Of a stretch of 64,000 nt of DNA, positions 2,809 through 13,017 are shown piece by piece. A model generated the notes under the pieces. It was not told where the DNA came from. It did no database searches and saw only the letters and a program-made list of their open reading frames with translations. The number at the start of each line of letters is the position of its first letter. Position 1 is the stretch's first letter. A program made the translations under genes and the position numbers. The DNA is from Candidatus Limnocylindrus sp. (GTDB lineage Bacteria; Chloroflexota; Limnocylindria; Limnocylindrales; Limnocylindraceae), in NCBI GenBank assembly GCA_040397175.1, contig JBBAWM010000001.1, forward strand, positions 185,976 through 249,975, given 5' to 3'.

Positions 2809-2866
2809 GCGCGCAGCCTAGCCGCAGGGGCGTATCGCCCGGGTGAGGCGTATACTCCCCCTGAGT

Positions 2867-5215
2867 ATGTCAACCGAACCGGCTCCTGCGGCACCTGCGG
2901 CCCCCGTGGCGGAGATTGCCCTCCCCGTCACCGGGATGACCTGCGCCTCGTGCGTGAACCGCGTGGAGCGATTCCTGAAGAAGGCCGACGGCGTGAGCGG
3001 GGCGAGCGTGAACCTTGCGACCTCGATGGCCACCATTCAGTACGCGCCTGAGGCAACGGGCGTTGCTGATCTCGCTGCGGTGATCAGCGCAGCTGGATAC
3101 GAGGTTCCCGCCGCAGCTCTCGCCCTCGCCGGACGCGAAGGAGACGCCGACGCACAAGAGGCGCGCCAAGCACTCGATGCTGAGCTCGTCGCCGCGCGCA
3201 CCAAAGAGACGCGCGGACTTCTCCGTGACGGAATCATCGCCACGATCTTCGGCTTCGGCGCGATGGCACTCATGTTGCAGCCGTGGTTCTTCATTAGCAT
3301 GGAGCGCATCAACTGGATCCTGATCGTGCCCTCCACCATCATTCAGTTCGCGGTCGGCTGGCGCTTCCACTCGCGCGCACTGCGCGCACTTCGTCACGGC
3401 TCGCTCACCATGGAGACACTCGTCAGTCTCGGCACGACGGCCGCATGGGGCTGGTCGGTGGCGATTACCCTCTTCCATTCGCAGCTGATGCGCGTTGGCG
3501 TTCCGGCGCACGCAACGTGGGATGCGGCAGCACTCATTCTCGGCTTTGTCGCACTCGGTCGCTGGATGGAGGCGCGCGCCAAGGAGCAGACCACCAGCGC
3601 GGTGCGCGGAATCCTCGCGCTGCAGCCACGAGAGGCAGAACTACTTGCAACCGCCGACGCACCAACCGCAACGACCATCGCCGTAAACAAGGTCATTGCT
3701 GGCGATCTGCTGCGCATTCGCCCTGGTGGTCGCATCCCAGTGGACGGCATCATCGTGAGCGGACGCGCCGCCGTCGATGAGTCGGCCATCACTGGCGAGT
3801 CACTTCCTGTCGAGCGCGGCCCAGGGAGCCGACTCGCTGCGGGCACGCTCCTCACCGATGCGTCGATCATCATGCGCGCGACGCAGGTAGGAGCAAACAC
3901 CACGTTGGCGCGCATCGTGGCCATGGTCGAGCGGGCACAGGGATCGAAGCCTGCGATTGCCCGTCTCGCCGATCGCATCTCAGAGGTGTTCGTTCCCGCC
4001 ATCCTGTTGATCGCCGTTGCCACCTTTGTTGGCTGGTATCTGCTCGGGGCCGAGCCGCGCCTCGTGCGCGCCGTGGCCACCGCCATCGCCGTGCTCGTGG
4101 TTGCCTGCCCCTGCGCAATGGGCCTCGCCACCCCCACCGCCGTGATCGCCGGCACCGGCCGCGGCGCTGAGGCGGGAATCCTCGTGCGCGACGCCGCCAT
4201 CCTCGAGGCGGCAGGGAAGCTGCGCGCCGTCGTCTGGGATAAGACCGGCACCCTCACCCTCGGCCAGCACGCCCTCGTCGGCCGCCTTGCTCTTACCACC
4301 GGTCCACTCGCTGGCGACACGGATCGCCTCCTGCAGATCGCCGCCGCCACCGAATCTTCATCGGAGCATCCACTCGCTCGCGCCATCGTCCGCGCAGCCG
4401 GAACGGTCGCAGTAAAGGCCACCGACTTCGCCATGCACGCAGGGCATGGCGTAAGCGCAACCGTCGATGGTGCAGCGGTGCGCATCGGCACCGAGGCCTT
4501 CACCGCCACGATCAACCCCGAGCTCACCAGGTGGGCATCAGGAGAGGCGGCTGCGGGACGCACGCCGCTCTTTATCTCAATGAACGGCGAATCTGCCGGC
4601 GCGCTCAGCCTTGCCGATACGGTTCGCCCAGAGAGCGCCGCCGCGATCCGTGCACTGAGCGCACGCGGCATTGAGTCGTGGATCATCAGCGGCGATCGCC
4701 AAGAGGTGGTGAACGCCATCGCCCACGACCTCAGCATTCCATCAGAGCGCGCCCGCGGCGGCATTCTTCCTGGCGGTAAGGGCGAGGCGATCGCCGAGAT
4801 TCGACGCAGCAGCAGTGGGCCCGTAGCGATGGTGGGAGATGGCGTGAACGACGCGCCAGCACTCGCCGCTGCTGACGTAGGTATCTCCATGGGTGGCGGA
4901 ACCGAGATCGCGATCGATGCATCGGCTGCAACCTTGAGCGGCGCAGACCCGCGCGGTGTGCCACTCCTCGTCGATCTTGCGCGCGCTACCACGCGCATCA
5001 TCAAGCAGAACCTTGGTTGGGCCTTTGGTTACAACATCATCCTGGTGCCACTCGCCGCCGGCCTCTTGCTCCCAACTTTCGGCATCGGACTTGACCCAGC
5101 ACTCGCCGCCGCCGCCATGGGTGGATCGAGCGTGACGGTGGTGCTGAATGCTCTGAGGCTGCGAAGGCTGCCGTTAGAACGCAACAACCTGAATCCTGTT
5201 AGGAATCCGCGTTAA
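2867..5215 (+). CDS. copA: Cu(+)-translocating P1B-type ATPase
   Basis: GMTCASC metal-binding domain, TGES, CPC, DKTGT, SEHPL, GDGVNDAP, YN and MxxSS motifs; ATG at 2867 follows a TATACT box. Confidence 0.93.
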   Translation: MSTEPAPAAPAAPVAEIALPVTGMTCASCVNRVERFLKKADGVSGASVNLATSMATIQYAPEATGVADLAAVISAAGYEVPAAALALAGREGDADAQEARQALDAELVAARTKETRGLLRDGIIATIFGFGAMALMLQPWFFISMERINWILIVPSTIIQFAVGWRFHSRALRALRHGSLTMETLVSLGTTAAWGWSVAITLFHSQLMRVGVPAHATWDAAALILGFVALGRWMEARAKEQTTSAVRGILALQPREAELLATADAPTATTIAVNKVIAGDLLRIRPGGRIPVDGIIVSGRAAVDESAITGESLPVERGPGSRLAAGTLLTDASIIMRATQVGANTTLARIVAMVERAQGSKPAIARLADRISEVFVPAILLIAVATFVGWYLLGAEPRLVRAVATAIAVLVVACPCAMGLATPTAVIAGTGRGAEAGILVRDAAILEAAGKLRAVVWDKTGTLTLGQHALVGRLALTTGPLAGDTDRLLQIAAATESSSEHPLARAIVRAAGTVAVKATDFAMHAGHGVSATVDGAAVRIGTEAFTATINPELTRWASGEAAAGRTPLFISMNGESAGALSLADTVRPESAAAIRALSARGIESWIISGDRQEVVNAIAHDLSIPSERARGGILPGGKGEAIAEIRRSSSGPVAMVGDGVNDAPALAAADVGISMGGGTEIAIDASAATLSGADPRGVPLLVDLARATTRIIKQNLGWAFGYNIILVPLAAGLLLPTFGIGLDPALAAAAMGGSSVTVVLNALRLRRLPLERNNLNPVRNPR
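5069..5182 (+). repeat. Direct repeat copy 1 (3' end of copA, 114 bp)
   Basis: Aligns without gaps to 8291-8404, 15 mismatches in 114 nt by hand count. Confidence 0.95.
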
Positions 5216-5270
5216 AACCTGCTAACTTCTCCGTATCTGAACCAGATTCTGAGTAAGGGGAGGTAAGAAA

Positions 5271-5651
5271 ATGCGTCGCAACAAGTACTTGGGGCTAATC
5301 TCGGGTGGGGTCGCCAGCCTAGTTCTAGCGTCGGCCGCCATTGCTAGTTCGATCGGCCCAAACACGCCTACCAGTCAGGGTCCAGGCTGGAATTCAATTA
5401 CATACCAAGCGACTAATACTACGTTCAGTATTCGAAATTGCTCAGCATCAGCTTCAACTTTGACGTTCGAGGTCATGAGGCACTGGCTGTTTTCCCCTAG
5501 TACTGGCACTGGTAAGAAAACCTACACGTGCAGTTCATCGTCAACGTATGTCTCAAAAACTTGGAGCAACACCGTGGGTGACTATAGCGTCGAATACAGC
5601 CCTTGGATCAATAGCGCGACGGTAAGCCTGACCTATTTCATCTCGTATTAA
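5271..5651 (+). CDS. Small secreted Ser/Thr-rich protein with two Cys (putative bacteriocin-like or signalling substrate)
   Basis: Strong SD AGGGGAGGT; Sec signal peptide MRRNK-hydrophobic-AIA; two Cys in the mature part. Confidence 0.75.
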   Translation: MRRNKYLGLISGGVASLVLASAAIASSIGPNTPTSQGPGWNSITYQATNTTFSIRNCSASASTLTFEVMRHWLFSPSTGTGKKTYTCSSSSTYVSKTWSNTVGDYSVEYSPWINSATVSLTYFISY

Positions 5652-6397
5652 TGCGCGGGCTCCTGTTTCGAGAGATTAGTTTTGGCTATAAACGGAAGAA
5701 TCAAGGAGAGCTAGCCGTCCTACAACGCTTAACTTGGCACGTGCCTACAGGCGTTACCGCCCTGCTTGGCATCAATGGTGCAGGCAAGAGCACGCTCTTG
5801 TCCCTTGGCGCGACGGCGTTGATGCCGAGGAGTGGCAAGGTGTCACTCAACGAGCTGGATTCCCGCGATCAGCGAACCCAATTTCGAGCGCGCGTGGCAT
5901 GGATGCCGCAGCAATATCGAGCAGTACCGGGGCTCACAGTTCGAGAACAGGTGGCGTATTCCGGTTGGCTGAAGGGTATGAGTCGTGACGATGCATGGCG
6001 CGGGGCCTCCGAAGCGTTGGCACGCGTGAGGCTGCAGGATCTAGCTGACCAGCCTGCAAGTGAACTTTCAGGAGGCCAGCAACGGCGCGTTGGCCTTGCC
6101 AGTGCCCTGGTCCACCACGCAGAAGTGTTGCTGCTCGATGAGCCCACCTCTGGGCTCGATCCAGAGCAGCGAGCCCTGTTCCGTGAACTACTGGTAAACA
6201 TTGGCGCCGACCGGACGGTTGTGGTTTCAACACACGACACAGGTGAAATCACGACGGCCTATGAGCATGTCGCGGTACTTCACGCAGGAAACATCGCCTT
6301 TGACGGCGCCTTGCAGGCCTTCTCGGCGCGTGCCCCAGCGGGGAGTGAGCGCCCGATTGAATCCGCATTTCTGGCTCTGATCGCTGGCGGTAAGTAG
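5651..6397 (+). CDS. ABC transporter ATP-binding protein
   Basis: GINGAGKST, LSGGQQRR, LLLDEPT, STH motifs. Confidence 0.93.
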   Translation: MRGLLFREISFGYKRKNQGELAVLQRLTWHVPTGVTALLGINGAGKSTLLSLGATALMPRSGKVSLNELDSRDQRTQFRARVAWMPQQYRAVPGLTVREQVAYSGWLKGMSRDDAWRGASEALARVRLQDLADQPASELSGGQQRRVGLASALVHHAEVLLLDEPTSGLDPEQRALFRELLVNIGADRTVVVSTHDTGEITTAYEHVAVLHAGNIAFDGALQAFSARAPAGSERPIESAFLALIAGGK

Positions 6398-7672
6398 GTG
6401 CGTCTTCGCACAATGCTCAGAATTTCGCCCGCAGTTTGGCTGACCTTACCTACGCTGATTCTGTCCATTCTCTATGTGACCAAGGCGATCTACCCGAACA
6501 ACTACGGTGTCGCAGCGACGGCGGGTGCAACCTCGTCTATGGCGTTCTTGGTTGGATTTGTTGCGATGACTGCGGCATGGGAGGCTGCACGGCTTCGTCG
6601 CGGCGGCATTTGGGATGCGCCGCATACACGTTCTAGGTTCGACATCACCATCATTGCGGTAACCCCCTCAATTCTATTGGGAGCCGTATTCCTACTCGGG
6701 ACTGTCGTTGCTGCCTCTGTCTACGGTCAGGCCGGGCTGCCTGAGATTCGCATGGTTGTCGTTGGATTCGTTGCAATCTGTGCGTGGAGCCTGGTGGGCT
6801 TCCTTGCAGGACTACGACTCCCCATGTCGGTGTCGCTACCGGGCATGCTTTTGGCGCCATTCCTCTGGTTCGCCTTTGTGCCAGCACTCCCTGTGGAATG
6901 GTTGCGTCATCTCAGCGGCATGTACCGAGATTGCTGCCGGATCGGTGCCGATATTGCCCCGGCGGCGCTGCTCGCAGGCCTGATCATGAATGTGACAATC
7001 ATCGTCATCGCGCTCTATGCGATCGGCGCTCTCGGTATGCGATGGTCACGCATCGTCGCAACCGCAATGCTCGTTACAGGGGTGATGGTCAGTAGCGCGT
7101 TCGCCTGGAATGTTGGTCCGATCCCAGAGGTTGCGCGCGATCAGTCCGCCTTAAAGTGCAGCACAGTGAGCGCAGCAGAGTTGTGCCTGTGGCCCGAGCA
7201 CGACAGCCCCACACAACTGTTTCGGCCGACGCTGACTGCAGTGATAGTGGAACTGGCTCGTCAGGAATTGCCGATCCCAGGCCGCTGGAGTGAAGAGCTC
7301 GCGAGCGCCACATCAGTGGATACGTTGACGCTCGACTTGTGGAAGTCAGATCCAGATTCAATTCGCTGGTCAATCGCACAGGGACTGGCGCCCTGGCCAG
7401 CGTGTTCGGAGGCTTCAGACTCAGGGTTTAGCGGTTCCTCAATTGATGTGTTGCGGGGCTGGTGGTTCACTGCGATGGGTGGGTCCGAAGCGATGCTGCA
7501 AGAGAATCTCGGCTGGTTGATCGCAGATCCGTCAGCATCTGGCGGCATTCCAATCAAGGACCTATACAGCGCCGTTGGCTCCGCTCCAGTCACATCGCGC
7601 GTTGCTTGGTTGGAGCGGCTTACATCCTTGGTTGCTGAATGCCAGTCGCCCGATGACTACAGCGTTCAATAG
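6398..7672 (+). CDS. ABC-type membrane protein with Cys-rich extracytoplasmic domain (DUF7224-like)
   Basis: Several N-terminal TM helices, then DCC, CLWPEH and further Cys; family name recalled, not searched. Confidence 0.7.
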   Translation: MRLRTMLRISPAVWLTLPTLILSILYVTKAIYPNNYGVAATAGATSSMAFLVGFVAMTAAWEAARLRRGGIWDAPHTRSRFDITIIAVTPSILLGAVFLLGTVVAASVYGQAGLPEIRMVVVGFVAICAWSLVGFLAGLRLPMSVSLPGMLLAPFLWFAFVPALPVEWLRHLSGMYRDCCRIGADIAPAALLAGLIMNVTIIVIALYAIGALGMRWSRIVATAMLVTGVMVSSAFAWNVGPIPEVARDQSALKCSTVSAAELCLWPEHDSPTQLFRPTLTAVIVELARQELPIPGRWSEELASATSVDTLTLDLWKSDPDSIRWSIAQGLAPWPACSEASDSGFSGSSIDVLRGWWFTAMGGSEAMLQENLGWLIADPSASGGIPIKDLYSAVGSAPVTSRVAWLERLTSLVAECQSPDDYSVQ

Positions 7673-7673
7673 C

Positions 7674-8288
7674 GTGTCCCTGTATCGAAAAATTCGTCGA
7701 GTTAATCTGATCACTCTTTCGGTCGTCGGATCGGCACTTCTTTTGCAAGTCCCGGCCAGCGCAATCTCTATTCGGGTGAGTCCTATTGGCGCACCGCTGA
7801 TGATCGCCCTCTTCATCGCTTTGGGGTTGCCAAGCGCCTTAGGATTTGGGCTGTCTAGCGGACTTCCCGCGCAAGAGTCCGTAGCAGCGCGCCGTATACG
7901 TCGCTACGACGCTGTACTCGTGGCCTCAAGCGTTTGTGCATTCTTGGCTCTTGGAGCCATCGGTGCACAGGTGTCTGCGGGAATCAATGTTTCAGGTGTA
8001 GGCGATACGTATCTAATTGCCACACGAGCGCTTATGACCTACCTAGGCTGGCTACTCGTCGCCCGGTTTTTTGTTGGATGGCGCACCGCTTCAATTGCGC
8101 CGGCGCTCTACCTCCTGGCGGTTGGAGTCTTTGGTTTCGCTGACGAATCCGCTGCGGCTGAATGGGCTTGGATCGGTCTCCCGGCGAATGACGGTTGGGC
8201 CTGGGCGTGTACGTGGATATTGCTTGGGTTGGGTACAGCGCTCTGGGCTTTTCGCCCTAACTGGTCAATCGAGGTGCGTGCGGCCTAG
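7674..8288 (+). CDS. Membrane protein, probable second permease or immunity subunit
   Basis: About 6 hydrophobic helices; GTG just after the upstream stop (ATG 7653 is an alternative start). Confidence 0.7.
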   Translation: MSLYRKIRRVNLITLSVVGSALLLQVPASAISIRVSPIGAPLMIALFIALGLPSALGFGLSSGLPAQESVAARRIRRYDAVLVASSVCAFLALGAIGAQVSAGINVSGVGDTYLIATRALMTYLGWLLVARFFVGWRTASIAPALYLLAVGVFGFADESAAAEWAWIGLPANDGWAWACTWILLGLGTALWAFRPNWSIEVRAA

Positions 8289-8290
8289 TT

Positions 8291-8419
8291 CTCCCAGCCT
8301 TTAGGATCGGCCTCGATCCAGCACTCGCCGCAGCCGCCATGGGCGGATCGAGCGTGACGGTGGTGCTGAATGCCCTGAGGCTGCGAAGGCTGCCACTAGA
8401 GCGATATCGGTTGAACTAG
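8291..8419 (+). pseudogene. Orphan copA 3'-end fragment (direct repeat copy 2) with its own stop codon
   Basis: Translates LPAFRIGLDPALAAAAMGGSSVTVVLNALRLRRLPLERYRLN*, versus copA LPTFGIGLDPALAAAAMGGSSVTVVLNALRLRRLPLERNNLN... Confidence 0.92.
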
Positions 8420-8534
8420 CACCCCCTGCTAGGATTTCTCGGGCTACTGATTGGCGCAAGTTTGGTCGGCAAACTGTCATCCCAGCCGCAGTTGCATGAG
8501 AGCAGCTGAGTCAAGGCAAGGAGGTTCTCCAAAA

Positions 8535-9251
8535 GTGGGATACACCCTCATCACCGGAGGATCTCGAGGTCTTGGTTTCGAGTGCGCCAAGGCGCTGCGG
8601 GCGAGCGGCCAAACGGTGCTGCTGATCGCAAAGGATGAACCGCGCTTGGCCGCAGCTGCCCAAAGCCTGGGCTGTGAGTACCAGAGTGTGGACCTTGCGG
8701 ATCTTGAGGCGACCGAGAAGGCGTTCACTGCGATCCTCGCCACGCGTGGTGCCCCTGATGTGCTGATCCTTGCGCACGGGGTGATGAGTGAAAAGTCTTC
8801 CAAAACCTTCGCTACGAATATCGACGAGTGGCGCCGGGTGATGTCGATCAATTTGGATTCTGTCTTTTGTGCACTCAATATTCTTGCGAAGCCAATGGCT
8901 GAGGCGCGACAAGGGCGGGTGGTTGTCTTCTCGGCGTGTCTTGGTCGTATGTCAGGACCAGGCAACGCAGGGGGGTTAATTCCTTACCGTGTGAGCAAGG
9001 CGGGGGTCAATGCACTCGTACGCAACCTTGCGCATGAAACGCTCCACGGCAAGCGCGGCTTCCTGATCGACGCTGTCTGCCCCAATCACTCCCGGACCGA
9101 CATGGGCGGGCCAGGCGCACCACTCTCTGCCGAAGAGGGCGCCGATACGGCGATCTGGTTGGCAACCCGACCGTTCAACGTCGAGGGCGCTTCCGATCAA
9201 GAGAAGCTGACTGGAGTGCTATGGGAGGAGCGAAACGTAATCCCATGGTGA
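8535..9251 (+). CDS. SDR-family oxidoreductase (carbonyl reductase-like)
   Basis: TGGSRGLG and YRVSK motifs, RTDMGG; GTG start after AGGAGG SD. Confidence 0.88.
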   Translation: MGYTLITGGSRGLGFECAKALRASGQTVLLIAKDEPRLAAAAQSLGCEYQSVDLADLEATEKAFTAILATRGAPDVLILAHGVMSEKSSKTFATNIDEWRRVMSINLDSVFCALNILAKPMAEARQGRVVVFSACLGRMSGPGNAGGLIPYRVSKAGVNALVRNLAHETLHGKRGFLIDAVCPNHSRTDMGGPGAPLSAEEGADTAIWLATRPFNVEGASDQEKLTGVLWEERNVIPW

Positions 9252-10438
9252 CCCCGCTCGGCCTAACAAAGATCGATGCGACCGAGGACCCACTCAAACT
9301 ACTGGCCGAACACTTCGAGGGCCTCTATTCAGGGACGCTTGGCCTGAGCTCAATCAGCGGCGGGCAACAGGCGGCCGACAGGGCGCTCCAGCAGCTTGAT
9401 ATCAGGGGGTACGCCGACCGCCGCTCGCAGGTGCTTCCACGGGCGAATCGAGGCGCGAGCGTGCTCTCTCCATACATTCGTCACAACATGATCACGCTGC
9501 GCCAGGTCTATGACGCCGTACAGGGTGCACCAGCCAAAGATCGTGAGAAGTTCCGCGATGAGCTCTGGTGGCAGGAGTATGCGCGGCACCTCTACGCCCG
9601 CATTGGCGTGCGCCTATTCGAGAACCTGCGTTTTGCCGCGAACTGGCGCGGCGAGGGGAACGGCTGGAATCGGGAGATGCTCTGCATCGACGAAGTTGTC
9701 TCTGAGCTCGAGGGGGATGGCTGGCTCGTCAATCAAACTCGCATGTGGCTGGCCTCTCACTGGACGGTTCGCAATGGTGTTGGCTGGATCTCGGGCCAGG
9801 AGCGCATGCACCAAGAGCTCATCGATGGCTCCAGGGCCGCCAACCTGCTTGGATGGCAGTGGACGGTCGGTGCGGGCACCGGCAAGCCCTACGGTTTTGC
9901 GAAGTGGCAGGTGGACAAGCGAGCGCCAGGCATCTGTTCACGATGTCCCCTCAAGGCCAACTGCCCGATCGAGGAGTTCCCGCGCGAGGTACACCTAGAG
10001 CAGCTTGAGCGAGATCCGCTTCTGGACAACGATCCCAACGTGCAGCGCACCACTGGGCCGATCACGCCCAGAATCAAACGCCCTGCGACGCATGTGCTGC
10101 TGACGATCGACTCACTCGGAATGCACGATCCGGCGCTTCGGGCCAATCCGACCTTGCCCGCGATCTTTGTCTTCAATGAGGGTGCGCTGAGGAAACTACA
10201 GCTGAGCGCGCGGCGAATTGGGTTCTATCTGCAGACGCTTGGCGAGCTCAGTGCTCAGCGAGGTGTGGAGGTGTATATCGGTGATCCCTACCAGTTTGCA
10301 CAAGAGCATCCGGTAGCCGTGACCTATGCGCCCGTTCCATCATTTCGAAAATTCACATCGGTTGCTGAGCTGCATCCATATCCGTGGCTGAAACTGCCGT
10401 CTGCAGGATCAGTTCGCAGCTTCTCCTCGTGGCGATAA
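9245..10438 (+). CDS. Photolyase/cryptochrome-family protein, FAD domain N-terminal, probable Fe-S cluster
   Basis: SVLSPYIRH, ELWWQEY, GWLVNQTRMWLAS, LIDGSRAANLLGWQW; Cys set C...CSRCPLKANC. Confidence 0.85.
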   Translation: MVTPLGLTKIDATEDPLKLLAEHFEGLYSGTLGLSSISGGQQAADRALQQLDIRGYADRRSQVLPRANRGASVLSPYIRHNMITLRQVYDAVQGAPAKDREKFRDELWWQEYARHLYARIGVRLFENLRFAANWRGEGNGWNREMLCIDEVVSELEGDGWLVNQTRMWLASHWTVRNGVGWISGQERMHQELIDGSRAANLLGWQWTVGAGTGKPYGFAKWQVDKRAPGICSRCPLKANCPIEEFPREVHLEQLERDPLLDNDPNVQRTTGPITPRIKRPATHVLLTIDSLGMHDPALRANPTLPAIFVFNEGALRKLQLSARRIGFYLQTLGELSAQRGVEVYIGDPYQFAQEHPVAVTYAPVPSFRKFTSVAELHPYPWLKLPSAGSVRSFSSWR

Positions 10439-10465
10439 CAACAGTCCGTGTAGGGCGCCGCTGAG

Positions 10466-11743
10466 CTAGCGAAGCTTTCCGAAGAGCGCCGAGGCGTTCT
10501 GGCCACCGAAGCCGAAGCCATTGATCAGCACGCGGTCGACTGACTGGTTGGTGCGCGCGGTGTGCGGCACGTAGTCGAGGTCGCACTCGGGGTCTGGCGT
10601 GTCGAGGTTGATCGTGGGTGGTACGGTGCCCGTCTCGATCGCCTTGATGGCGGCGAGTCCGGCAATGGCGCCAGCGCCACCCAAGAGGTGGCCGACCATG
10701 CTCTTTGGCGAGCTGATCGGAATCTTGTAGGCGTGATCACCAAGGGCGCGCTTGATCGCCTTTGTTTCGGTGAGGTCGTTGAGTGGGGTGCTCGTGCCGT
10801 GCGCCACGATGTAGCTGATGTCTTCGATGACGGCGCCGCCATCGAGGATCGCCTTGGTCATGGAGCCTGCAGCGCCGCGGCCGGTTGGCTCAGGGGCGCT
10901 GATGTGGAAGGCGTCGGCGGTTGCACCGGCACCGAGCAGCTCGGCGCGAATCGTGGCCCCGCGCGCCTTCGCGTGGGCGAGCGACTCGACCACGAAGACG
11001 GCACCGCCTTCGCCGAAGACGAAGCCGTCGCGGTTCTTGTCAAACGGTCGGCTGGCGTGCGTTGGGTCGTCGTTGCGCTTGCTGAGGGCGCCCATGTTGC
11101 TGAGGGCGGCGAAGGCCATCGGCAGGAGTGGTGCCTCGACGCCACCGGCGACGACCACGTCGGCCTCGCCGCTGCGGATCAGGCGGAGTGCATCTTGAAA
11201 GGCGAGCACGCCCGTGGCGCAGGCGGCGGCCTGGGTGATCGCGGCGCCGGTGAGGCCGTACTTCATGCTGACCATGCAGGCGCCCATGCTCGGGCTAAGG
11301 GCAGGAATGGCGAAGGCGCTCACGAAGCGGCCGCCCTTTTCGCGATAGGCGTCGCTCCCGATGGTGACCTGCTCGATGCCACCACCGCCGGTGTTGATCA
11401 CCGTGGCAACGCGGTCGCGGCGCTCTGGCTCCCAGCTGGCAATGTCGGCGAGGCCGGCGTGTTCGATGGCTTCGGTGGCGGCGGCGATCGCGAACTGCAC
11501 GAAGCGGCTCATGCGACGCGCCATCTTCATATCCATGGTGAGGAGCGGATCGAAGCCCTTCACCTCGGCGGCGATGCGCACGTCGTTTGGTGAGGCGTCG
11601 AAGTGGGTGATGAGGCCCGCACCTGAGCGTCCTGCGATCAGGCTCTCCCAGTATTCGCCAGCGCTATTGCCGATCGGCGTAATCGCGCCGTAGCCGGTGA
11701 TGACCGCGCGCTGCGTGTCGGTTCGTACGGGGGTGGTGCTCAT
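10466..11743 (-). CDS. fabF: Beta-ketoacyl-ACP synthase II
   Basis: ACATG, HGTSTPLND, KSMVGH, NGFGFGGQN. Confidence 0.92.
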   Translation of the reverse strand: MSTTPVRTDTQRAVITGYGAITPIGNSAGEYWESLIAGRSGAGLITHFDASPNDVRIAAEVKGFDPLLTMDMKMARRMSRFVQFAIAAATEAIEHAGLADIASWEPERRDRVATVINTGGGGIEQVTIGSDAYREKGGRFVSAFAIPALSPSMGACMVSMKYGLTGAAITQAAACATGVLAFQDALRLIRSGEADVVVAGGVEAPLLPMAFAALSNMGALSKRNDDPTHASRPFDKNRDGFVFGEGGAVFVVESLAHAKARGATIRAELLGAGATADAFHISAPEPTGRGAAGSMTKAILDGGAVIEDISYIVAHGTSTPLNDLTETKAIKRALGDHAYKIPISSPKSMVGHLLGGAGAIAGLAAIKAIETGTVPPTINLDTPDPECDLDYVPHTARTNQSVDRVLINGFGFGGQNASALFGKLR

Positions 11744-11751
11744 GGCTCCTC

Positions 11752-13017
11752 CTACTTTCCGGTCCAGCGCCGCAACACGATGGCGCCATTATGGCCACCG
11801 AGCCCAACGTTGTTGCTCACCGCGGCACGAATCTCGGCCGGGCGTGTTTCACAGTTGACGTTCAGGTTGCAGGCGGGGTCGACGTTCTTCGTATGCAGAG
11901 TTCCTGGAATCACCTGGTGGTGCAGCGAGAGGGTCGTGAAGACTGCCTCCACGGCGCCCGCGGCACCCATCAGGTGTCCCGTCAGTGACTTCGTTGCTGA
12001 GATTGGAATCTCTGCCGCACGTGGCCCGAAGGAGGCGTGGAAGGCGAGCGCCTCGCGCTCGTCGCCCACTGGCGTGCTGGTGCCGTGCGGATTGATCAAA
12101 TCAATCTCCGACGGATCGATCTTGCCGCGCTGCAGCGCCCACTTAATGGAGCGCGCCGAACCGGCACCCCCCTCGATCGGCTGGATCATGTCGTGCGCGT
12201 CGGCCGAGCTGCCGTAGCCAACAACTTCGGCGTATATGGTGGCGCCGCGCGCCGTGGCCGAGGCGAGATCCTCAACGATGAAGGCGCCCGCCCCTTCGCC
12301 CAGAACGAAGCCGGCGCGATCCACGTCGTACGGTCGGCAGGCCGATGCTGGCCCTTCGCCGTCGCGCGGGCTGGCGAGTCCGCGCATGTTCATGAAGCCG
12401 ATGTGCGCCACCTCGATAAGGGGGTTCTCGGTGGAGCCGGCGATGACGGCGGTCACGTCGCCGCGCTTGATCGCCTCAGCAGCCTCGCCCAAGGCATGCG
12501 TGCCGGTGGCGCATGCGGAGACGACGGCGAGGTTGTGCCCCACGGCGCCCGACTCGATCGCAATCATCCCCGAGGTGCTGTCGACGAGGCCGTGGGCGAT
12601 GAAGGTCGGCGCAACGGTGCGCGGCCCCTTCTCCTTCCAGCTCATCTGGTTCTCGATGAAGAGCCCTTGCCCGCCAGCGCCCGAGCCGAAGACCACGCCA
12701 ACCTCTTCGCGGTTCGCGTCGGTGATCTCGAGCCCCGAGTCGCGCAGGGCGGCCTTCGCCGCGGCAACACCCCAATGGATCTCGGGGCCGGTGCGGCGGA
12801 TCTGCTTGGCGTCGAGGAACTGGGTGACGTCAAAGTCCTTCACTTCGCCAGCAACCACGTATGGCGCGTAGGGGGTTGGGTCCCAGTGGGTGATCTGCGC
12901 GATGCCGCTGCGCCCTTCCGTCAGTGATGTCCAGACGTCGCCGACGGTGTTGCCGATCGGCGAGACGATGCCGAGTCCGGTGATAACGACCCGTCGGGTG
13001 TGATCTGGCTCGCGCAT
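11752..13017 (-). CDS. fabF: Beta-ketoacyl-ACP synthase II, second paralog
   Basis: ACATG, HGTSTPVGD, KSLTGH, NNVGLGGHN. Confidence 0.88.
   Translation of the reverse strand: MREPDHTRRVVITGLGIVSPIGNTVGDVWTSLTEGRSGIAQITHWDPTPYAPYVVAGEVKDFDVTQFLDAKQIRRTGPEIHWGVAAAKAALRDSGLEITDANREEVGVVFGSGAGGQGLFIENQMSWKEKGPRTVAPTFIAHGLVDSTSGMIAIESGAVGHNLAVVSACATGTHALGEAAEAIKRGDVTAVIAGSTENPLIEVAHIGFMNMRGLASPRDGEGPASACRPYDVDRAGFVLGEGAGAFIVEDLASATARGATIYAEVVGYGSSADAHDMIQPIEGGAGSARSIKWALQRGKIDPSEIDLINPHGTSTPVGDEREALAFHASFGPRAAEIPISATKSLTGHLMGAAGAVEAVFTTLSLHHQVIPGTLHTKNVDPACNLNVNCETRPAEIRAAVSNNVGLGGHNGAIVLRRWTGK

Follow-up and report, generated by a model that had tools for sequence, protein, structure and literature searches.

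The window, by which we mean the whole 64,000-nucleotide stretch of Candidatus Limnocylindrus sp. DNA analysed here, contains a copper ATPase gene, copA, that converges with fabF1, a gene for a beta-ketoacyl-ACP synthase, on a gap filled with accessory genes or cargo (Table 1). The last part of copA occurs a second time inside this gap. An initial annotation explained the arrangement by an integrase-less cassette that used the 3' end of copA as its anchor. Here, we describe the copA-fabF gap as a variable slot of the genus. Sequence comparison suggests that the duplicated 3' end is a scar within that slot and not the mark of a copA-specific cassette system.

Gene content and the repeated copA end

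The two copies of the copA end form a direct repeat without gaps (5059-5181 and 8281-8403; 123 nt, 86% identity, spacing 3222), and when copy 1 is compared with the whole genome, copy 2 is the sole strong second match (E 3e-36). Over the 38 codons of 5069-5182, 13 codons are changed and 11 of these changes are synonymous, the remaining two being T/A and G/R. Beyond the repeat, copy 1 continues as NNLNPVRNPR* and copy 2 as YRLN*. These counts agree with the initial annotation, and the 5' edge of the repeat lies 10 nt further upstream than 5069. The DNA between the copies has a G+C content of 56.8%, as compared with 65.8% in copA; no tRNA lies within it or near the slot, and a Pfam search of its open reading frames (ORFs) found no integrase or transposase family. 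The AT-rich, integrase-less character ascribed to this interval is thus confirmed, but not its extent. The short-chain dehydrogenase (SDR) and photolyase-like genes past copy 2 share the low G+C content (59.9%) and belong to the cargo, so the variable region is 5216-10465 and not 5216-8290.

Table 1. Features of the copA-fabF slot and its borders, in positions of the window.
Feature	Position	Strand	Evidence or remark
copA-like copper P1B-type ATPase, 790 aa, left core gene	2843..5215	+	TIGR01511 530.8 bits (cut-off 397); Pfam E1-E2_ATPase, HMA
Repeat copy 1 in the functional copA 3' region, followed by the allele-A C-terminus NNLNPVRNPR	5059..5181	+	Same C-terminus type before orf126 in G034, L068, L069
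orf126, 126 aa, first gene of allele A (A2 form lacks it)	5271..5651	+	4 homologues
ABC ATP-binding protein, allele A	5651..6397	+	Pfam ABC_tran E 5e-31
DUF7224-type membrane protein, probable ABC permease, allele A	6398..7672	+	Weak DUF7224 match below cut-off; Atlas score 0.97-0.98
Membrane protein, working name TM237, last gene of allele A	7653..8288	+	ORF open from 7575, ATG 7653; stop codon at junction
6-nt microhomology CGGCCT	8281..8286	+	In register in the TM237 end and copA 5059-5064
Orphan copA 3' tail (copy 2), native copA end of allele B	8281..8419	+	Tail and spacer match G010, G023, G033, G063
Extended -10-like motif TGCTAGGAT just past the orphan stop, candidate promoter of allele B	8427..8435	+	Motif matching
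SDR, allele B cargo	8538..9251	+	Pfam adh_short
Photolyase FAD-binding-domain protein, allele B cargo	9221..10438	+	Pfam FAD_binding_7
fabF1, beta-ketoacyl-ACP synthase II, right core gene, convergent with copA	10466..11743	-	TIGR03150 above cut-off
fabF2, second ketoacyl synthase, contains the right edge of the swapped tract	11752..13017	-	Sequence comparison with G004
Tract common to the genome of the window (G000) and another species (G004)	4442..12003	.	99.0% identity; edges inside copA and fabF2

Several cargo features can be described further. The orf126 product has no Pfam or NCBIfam match. The nearest clusters of the DUF7224-type protein are mostly from Actinomycetota, and its identity to actinobacterial metagenome-assembled genomes is ~30%. 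In the 405-aa photolyase-like product, only the N-terminal photolyase FAD-binding part is matched, and the C-terminal region is without a match. A TGCTAGGAT-type motif lies 4-8 nt from the stop codon in 26 of 53 tail ends, which share ancestry, and a scan for two-hexamer sigma-70 promoters gave 0 sites. In other alleles copA is followed by a spacer motif, and at 5183-5250 of the window the allele-A C-terminus looks as if copA had been read through into a short second copy of that motif.

The two alleles and their junction

The copA C-terminus was matched in 33 of the 42 genomes of the genus, all of which are incomplete draft assemblies from metagenomes, and its surroundings were compared together with 15 metagenomic stretches. 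Sequences that run from the copA end to fabF1 are termed closed slots and number 34 (25 genomes and 9 contigs, some of which may share their source with a genome); they were chosen for having fabF1, so that fabF1 borders 34 of 34 by selection.

Allele A, consisting of orf126 and the ABC cassette, occurs alone and with no second tail in G034, L068 and L069, where it follows an intact copA of the NNLNP type; G020 is likewise A-only. Allele B, consisting of the SDR and photolyase-like genes, occurs alone in G010, G033 and G063 and forms the left part of the slot in G023. In all four genomes an intact copA with a short C-terminus of the ERDRL/ERERL type leads into the same spacer and SDR gene that follow copy 2. 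Copy 2 is the copA end of allele B, as the initial annotation had anticipated in attributing it to another copA allele. Because A and B each occur alone behind an intact copA in relatives, the window holds allele A followed by the copA end of allele B and allele B itself. The stacked junction of the window recurs in G004 and G064.

The excess of synonymous changes between the copies reflects divergence between working alleles. The earlier view that both copies evolved as coding sequence holds insofar as most of the divergence arose while they were coding, but copy 2 does not look to be still under selection: it has R where 47 of 48 intact copA ends have G and none has R, V at a position where 0 of 48 have V, and in G000 a private Y. 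The orphan tail is probably carried along as a passenger, with occasional renewal through crossovers with intact copA alleles. A further sequence, L077, has the V codon of the orphan type and starts right at the junction. It may represent another orphan or an unsampled intact allele and was left out of the orphan count.

At the junction, TM237 is fused to the copA tail across the 6-nt microhomology. Random joins reach at least 6 nt with P ~0.002, a score that was made post hoc. The bases at the TM237 3' end are the same in the A-only genome G020, where the fabF1 stop codon comes 22 nt later, and a minor contig of run X5 joins TM237 straight to fabF1 (8288 to 10476, depth 6.9).

Since the genomes were assembled from metagenomes, and run X5 contains both the A-only and the stacked allele, the arrangement might be a chimera of two strains or, failing that, the remnant of a whole second copA. 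Both explanations are extremely improbable. The same junction occurs in three genomes (G000, G004 and G064) with ~89-90% identical flanks; single contigs span it in X1 and X3, either of which may be the source of a genome and X1 that of the window, and a 221-nt contig from another sample, X5, bridges it. The sequence upstream of copy 2 is the natural end of TM237, which is intact, and not decayed copA. The shared junction, the bridging contigs and the intact TM237 end refute both for practical purposes.

The slot across the genus

In all 34 closed slots copA and fabF1 are convergent, and the gap between them shows 20 cargo arrangements by our count, with sizes that range from a 31-nt spacer in the near-empty allele L073 to 5.3 kb. 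The expectation of an integrase-less hotspot with variable cargo is borne out, as alternative and near-empty alleles are seen and the cargo is not fixed in all relatives. Over all slot sequences, open ones included, the cargo comprises genes for MFS, luciferase-like, PAS-UbiA, RCC1-repeat, fibronectin/RTX, YCII, rhodopsin and methionine sulfoxide reductase proteins, and also ABC and SDR proteins. One large allele, found in L081:685-6523 (G011) and L088 (G005), encodes a microbial rhodopsin, a lycopene-cyclase/UbiA protein, a fused methionine sulfoxide reductase and a multicopper oxidase. In L087:4800-5260 (G062), a 110-nt perfect direct repeat overlaps a remnant of the luciferase-like gene beside a 513-aa ORF without a known family. 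Frameshifts are present in the G064 copA (L058), the L076 ABC ATPase and the L075 SDR and may be assembly errors. No description of the copA-fabF slot, or of copA as an insertion site, was found in the literature searched, which excluded subscription papers and supplements, and a paper on this lineage (PMC13212565) contains neither 'copA' nor 'genomic island'.

A second, independent stack is found in G023 (L035:8100-11500). There, allele B is followed by a 290-nt copA tail and two RCC1-repeat genes, between which lies a 71-nt fabF1 tail. This copA tail has at most 82.5% identity to any sampled allele and carries a codon deletion, and the fabF-tail junction has a 7-nt microhomology. Cargo genes have left tails at junctions as well, namely 52 nt of the TM237 end in L064 and 62 nt of the end of a luciferase-like gene in G006. 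Because fabF1, TM237 and luciferase-like tails occur as well as copA tails, the scars would seem to come from whichever gene lay at the broken end. The special role as an anchor that the initial annotation gave to copA is therefore not borne out by the sampled slots. The same applies to its expectation that every cargo would be preceded by a tail: an orphan copA tail is present in 4 of the 25 closed genome slots, and these derive from 2 junctions.

The tails bear directly on a further explanation, in which an integrase-borne island would have inserted at the copA 3' end, leaving the repeat as its attL and attR sites, and later lost its integrase, in the manner of a cis-mobilizable element (CIME). 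A restored gene with a displaced fragment downstream is the textbook footprint of an island (PMC4383910), and the same genome has such an element on contig C4, where tRNA-Ser(GGA) is accompanied by a 63-nt repeat and an adjoining integrase match. At copA, this explanation is very improbable. The two copA tails differ in where they start, at 139 and ~290 nt from the stop codon, and 21 of the 25 closed genome slots are without a copA tail. Of 204 non-redundant slot ORFs, the 114 longest were scanned and none matched a recombinase family; the 6 tyrosine recombinase matches in G000 include none on C1, the contig of the window, and resolvases were found in 0 of 5 genomes. Viral contigs and phages gave no match to the copA tail, and plasmids gave ABC-motif matches only. 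A whole tRNA is absent from the 33 loci. The 3' part of tRNA-Ser(GGA) lies directly after copA in six loci of distant relatives (L048 of G036, L049, L017, L055, L046 and L053), with a second copy in G036.

Slot alleles also move between species. G000 and G004 differ at 76 positions in the 7562 nt of their common tract, and the flanks on either side are 89.2% and 89.9% identical. A near-identical island in divergent genomes is described as the signature of recent homologous replacement (PMC4033161), and the whole slot appears to have been swapped between species by crossovers in copA and fabF2. Similarly, the 639-nt slot of G007 and G025 is 100% identical. In G064, identity to G000 falls from 98.4% just before the orphan to 89.6% from ~30 nt inside it (Fisher p 4e-5), so that a crossover inside the orphan is likely in this genome. 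An 89% patch between G064 and G000 is also seen within the cassette; because a similar identity step occurs there, the orphan need not be a favoured crossover site.

Origin of the stacked allele and likeness to known systems

We consider it likely that the stacked allele arose by one homologous crossover and one microhomology join, resembling homology-facilitated illegitimate recombination (HFIR), and then spread by replacement with no integrase involved. The incoming DNA would be a linear fragment, probably taken up by transformation. RecA would anchor one of its ends in a core gene, the far end would be fused illegitimately at the microhomology, and the stacked allele would later spread by double crossover. 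All 5 genomes tested encode ComEC, DprA and RecA. Both flanks could act as the homologous anchor, and later recombination has erased the tract. In what is tentatively our first choice, B DNA would have its anchor in fabF, and the leading end, which reaches 139 nt into copA, would be joined to A's last stop codon; the resident would stay intact up to that codon. Possible, although a step less so, is the opposite direction, in which A DNA would be anchored in copA and the resident tail pushed downstream; this matches the displacement model of PMC5361080. Allele affinities point to a direction only in G064 and are scrambled elsewhere. In G064, copy 1 is identical to the A-only genome G034 over 5059-5100, and copy 2 differs from G034 at 9 of 38 sites.

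Several points weigh against this explanation. HFIR is inferred here from the anatomy of the junction, no event having been observed, and it is described as rare (PMC5361080). The left parent supplies the 2 bases past the microhomology, and the sampled alleles do not include the exact right parent. Only 2 junctions, those with adequate sampling of both parents, can be scored for microhomology, the other 3 (the first junction of G023, L064 and G006) being unscorable or untidy. ComEC and DprA also occur in 10 or 11 of 14 control genomes, and genes this widespread are no sign of competence. The test in G064 is weak because copA alleles are heavily mosaic, and copy 1 of G000 is equally close to B alleles and A2 alleles (5 differences each). 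Routes through a circle or a tandem duplication require the same microhomology join and fit the junction equally well.

In those routes, a unit of tail plus cassette A would close at the microhomology in an A-type cell, giving either a circle or a tandem duplication. It would then enter a B chromosome through one RecA crossover within the 123-nt tail, or its second copy would be replaced by B. The single-crossover entry of a tail-plus-cargo unit proposed by the initial annotation belongs here, and we rank it second, as an unlikely but serious contender: the junction lies on a microhomology, and it is copy 1 of G064, not copy 2, that is A-type there. The final anatomy would be the same; the 5' part of G000 copy 1 is compatible with B alleles; and trpS in G000 has a tail-plus-cargo unit twice in tandem at 99% identity, so such units can duplicate. 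However, an A-type start of copy 2 and a resident start of copy 1 are predicted, and G064 shows the opposite. The crossover would have to fall within 123 nt at ~86-90% identity, and neither the fabF1-tail scar nor the cargo-gene tails are readily produced. A circle, an excision or a tail-to-tail joint was found neither in 4 runs across the slot nor in 4 on the junction, which proves nothing as contigs only were searched.

The trpS site was found by comparing G000 with itself: among the matches listed, 7 candidates were inspected, and besides copA only trpS and tRNA-Ser(GGA) resembled gene-tail scars. At the end of contig C4 (L079:5766-8849), trpS is followed twice by a unit of its tail and a WsaF-like glycosyltransferase gene (1449-nt period, 2 mismatches), the two gene copies being identical, and the contig ends in a third tail of 92.7% identity. 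Most of 13 relatives compared differ in the genes that follow trpS. No trpS orphan tails were found in other genomes, trpS itself being matched in only ~13 of 41. The array may result from the same process as the copA-fabF stack, or it may be partly an assembly effect at the contig end. One could speculate, although we doubt it, that orphan core-gene tails at copA/fabF and trpS provide additional places for crossovers within a slot, whose parts could then be exchanged one by one, so that streamlined bacteria would have an integron-like array system made only by RecA and microhomology joins at core-gene ends. The identity drop inside the G064 orphan and the tail-punctuated trpS array suggest this idea; similar steps inside the cassette and the rarity of tails speak against it.

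Under the favoured explanation of one homologous crossover and one microhomology join, the slot illustrates how a freshwater bacterium with a 1.4-Mb genome may gain and trade accessory genes with no mobile element at the site. The evidence includes the two parent alleles, an empty one, microhomologies at junctions and a clean swap between species, and the slot offers a population-scale test of HFIR in nature. It also carries a caution, namely that a duplicated gene 3' end alone does not equal an attachment site. The slot is a variant of known recombination-driven islands and no new cassette machine. Its component mechanisms have been described before, so the surprise is moderate.

In HFIR, short microhomologies of 3-10 nt mark the non-homologous junction, and those of the slot measure 6 nt in the window and 7 nt in G023. 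The process has been demonstrated experimentally in Acinetobacter, Streptococcus and Pseudomonas (PMC2884548, PMC6382021, PMC5361080), whereas in the slot it is deduced from sequence; the two would have in common one homologous anchor and another end joined without long homology, and RecA and uptake genes are present. In PMC6382021, 3-10 bp is given as the size of integrated segments.

Additive flexible genomic islands with tRNA 3' repeats (PMC4898812, PMC7771536, PMC10872708) resemble the slot in that cassettes accumulate in one place, a gene 3' fragment marks an addition and content is shared across species. In those islands, the repeat is a tRNA end at a site-directed hotspot. In the slot, by contrast, it is the end of a protein gene, is variable in length and is absent from most additions: neither a tRNA or tmRNA at the insertion site nor the same target-end repeat with each cassette was found (4 of 25 genomes, 2 junctions). 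Integrase islands and CIMEs are characterised by a site-specific recombinase in the element or its relatives, which was likewise not found in the scanned sequences.

The closest likenesses are to two other systems. In replacement flexible genomic islands (Lopez-Perez et al. 2014, PMC4033161), as in the slot, different contents occupy a fixed place between conserved genes, and near-identical versions occur in divergent genomes through homologous recombination in the flanks. The versions of a replacement island encode an equivalent surface structure (glycotype), whereas the cargo of the copA-fabF slot is functionally mixed, reaches up to 5.3 kb and is also found as alleles stacked with microhomology scars. 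In the displacement arrays of the Vibrio cholerae type VI secretion system and of Rhs and contact-dependent inhibition loci (Kirchberger et al. 2017, PMC5361080), a conserved anchor and an illegitimate join add a module without an integrase and leave orphan 3' ends, and plain replacement is commoner than addition, all of which the slot would share. Their anchor is a toxin-delivery gene, and the retained immunity genes are useful; the slot has a housekeeping gene as anchor on either side, each side contributes scars and the orphan is a putative passenger. The copA-fabF slot would thereby link replacement islands and displacement arrays at one housekeeping locus.

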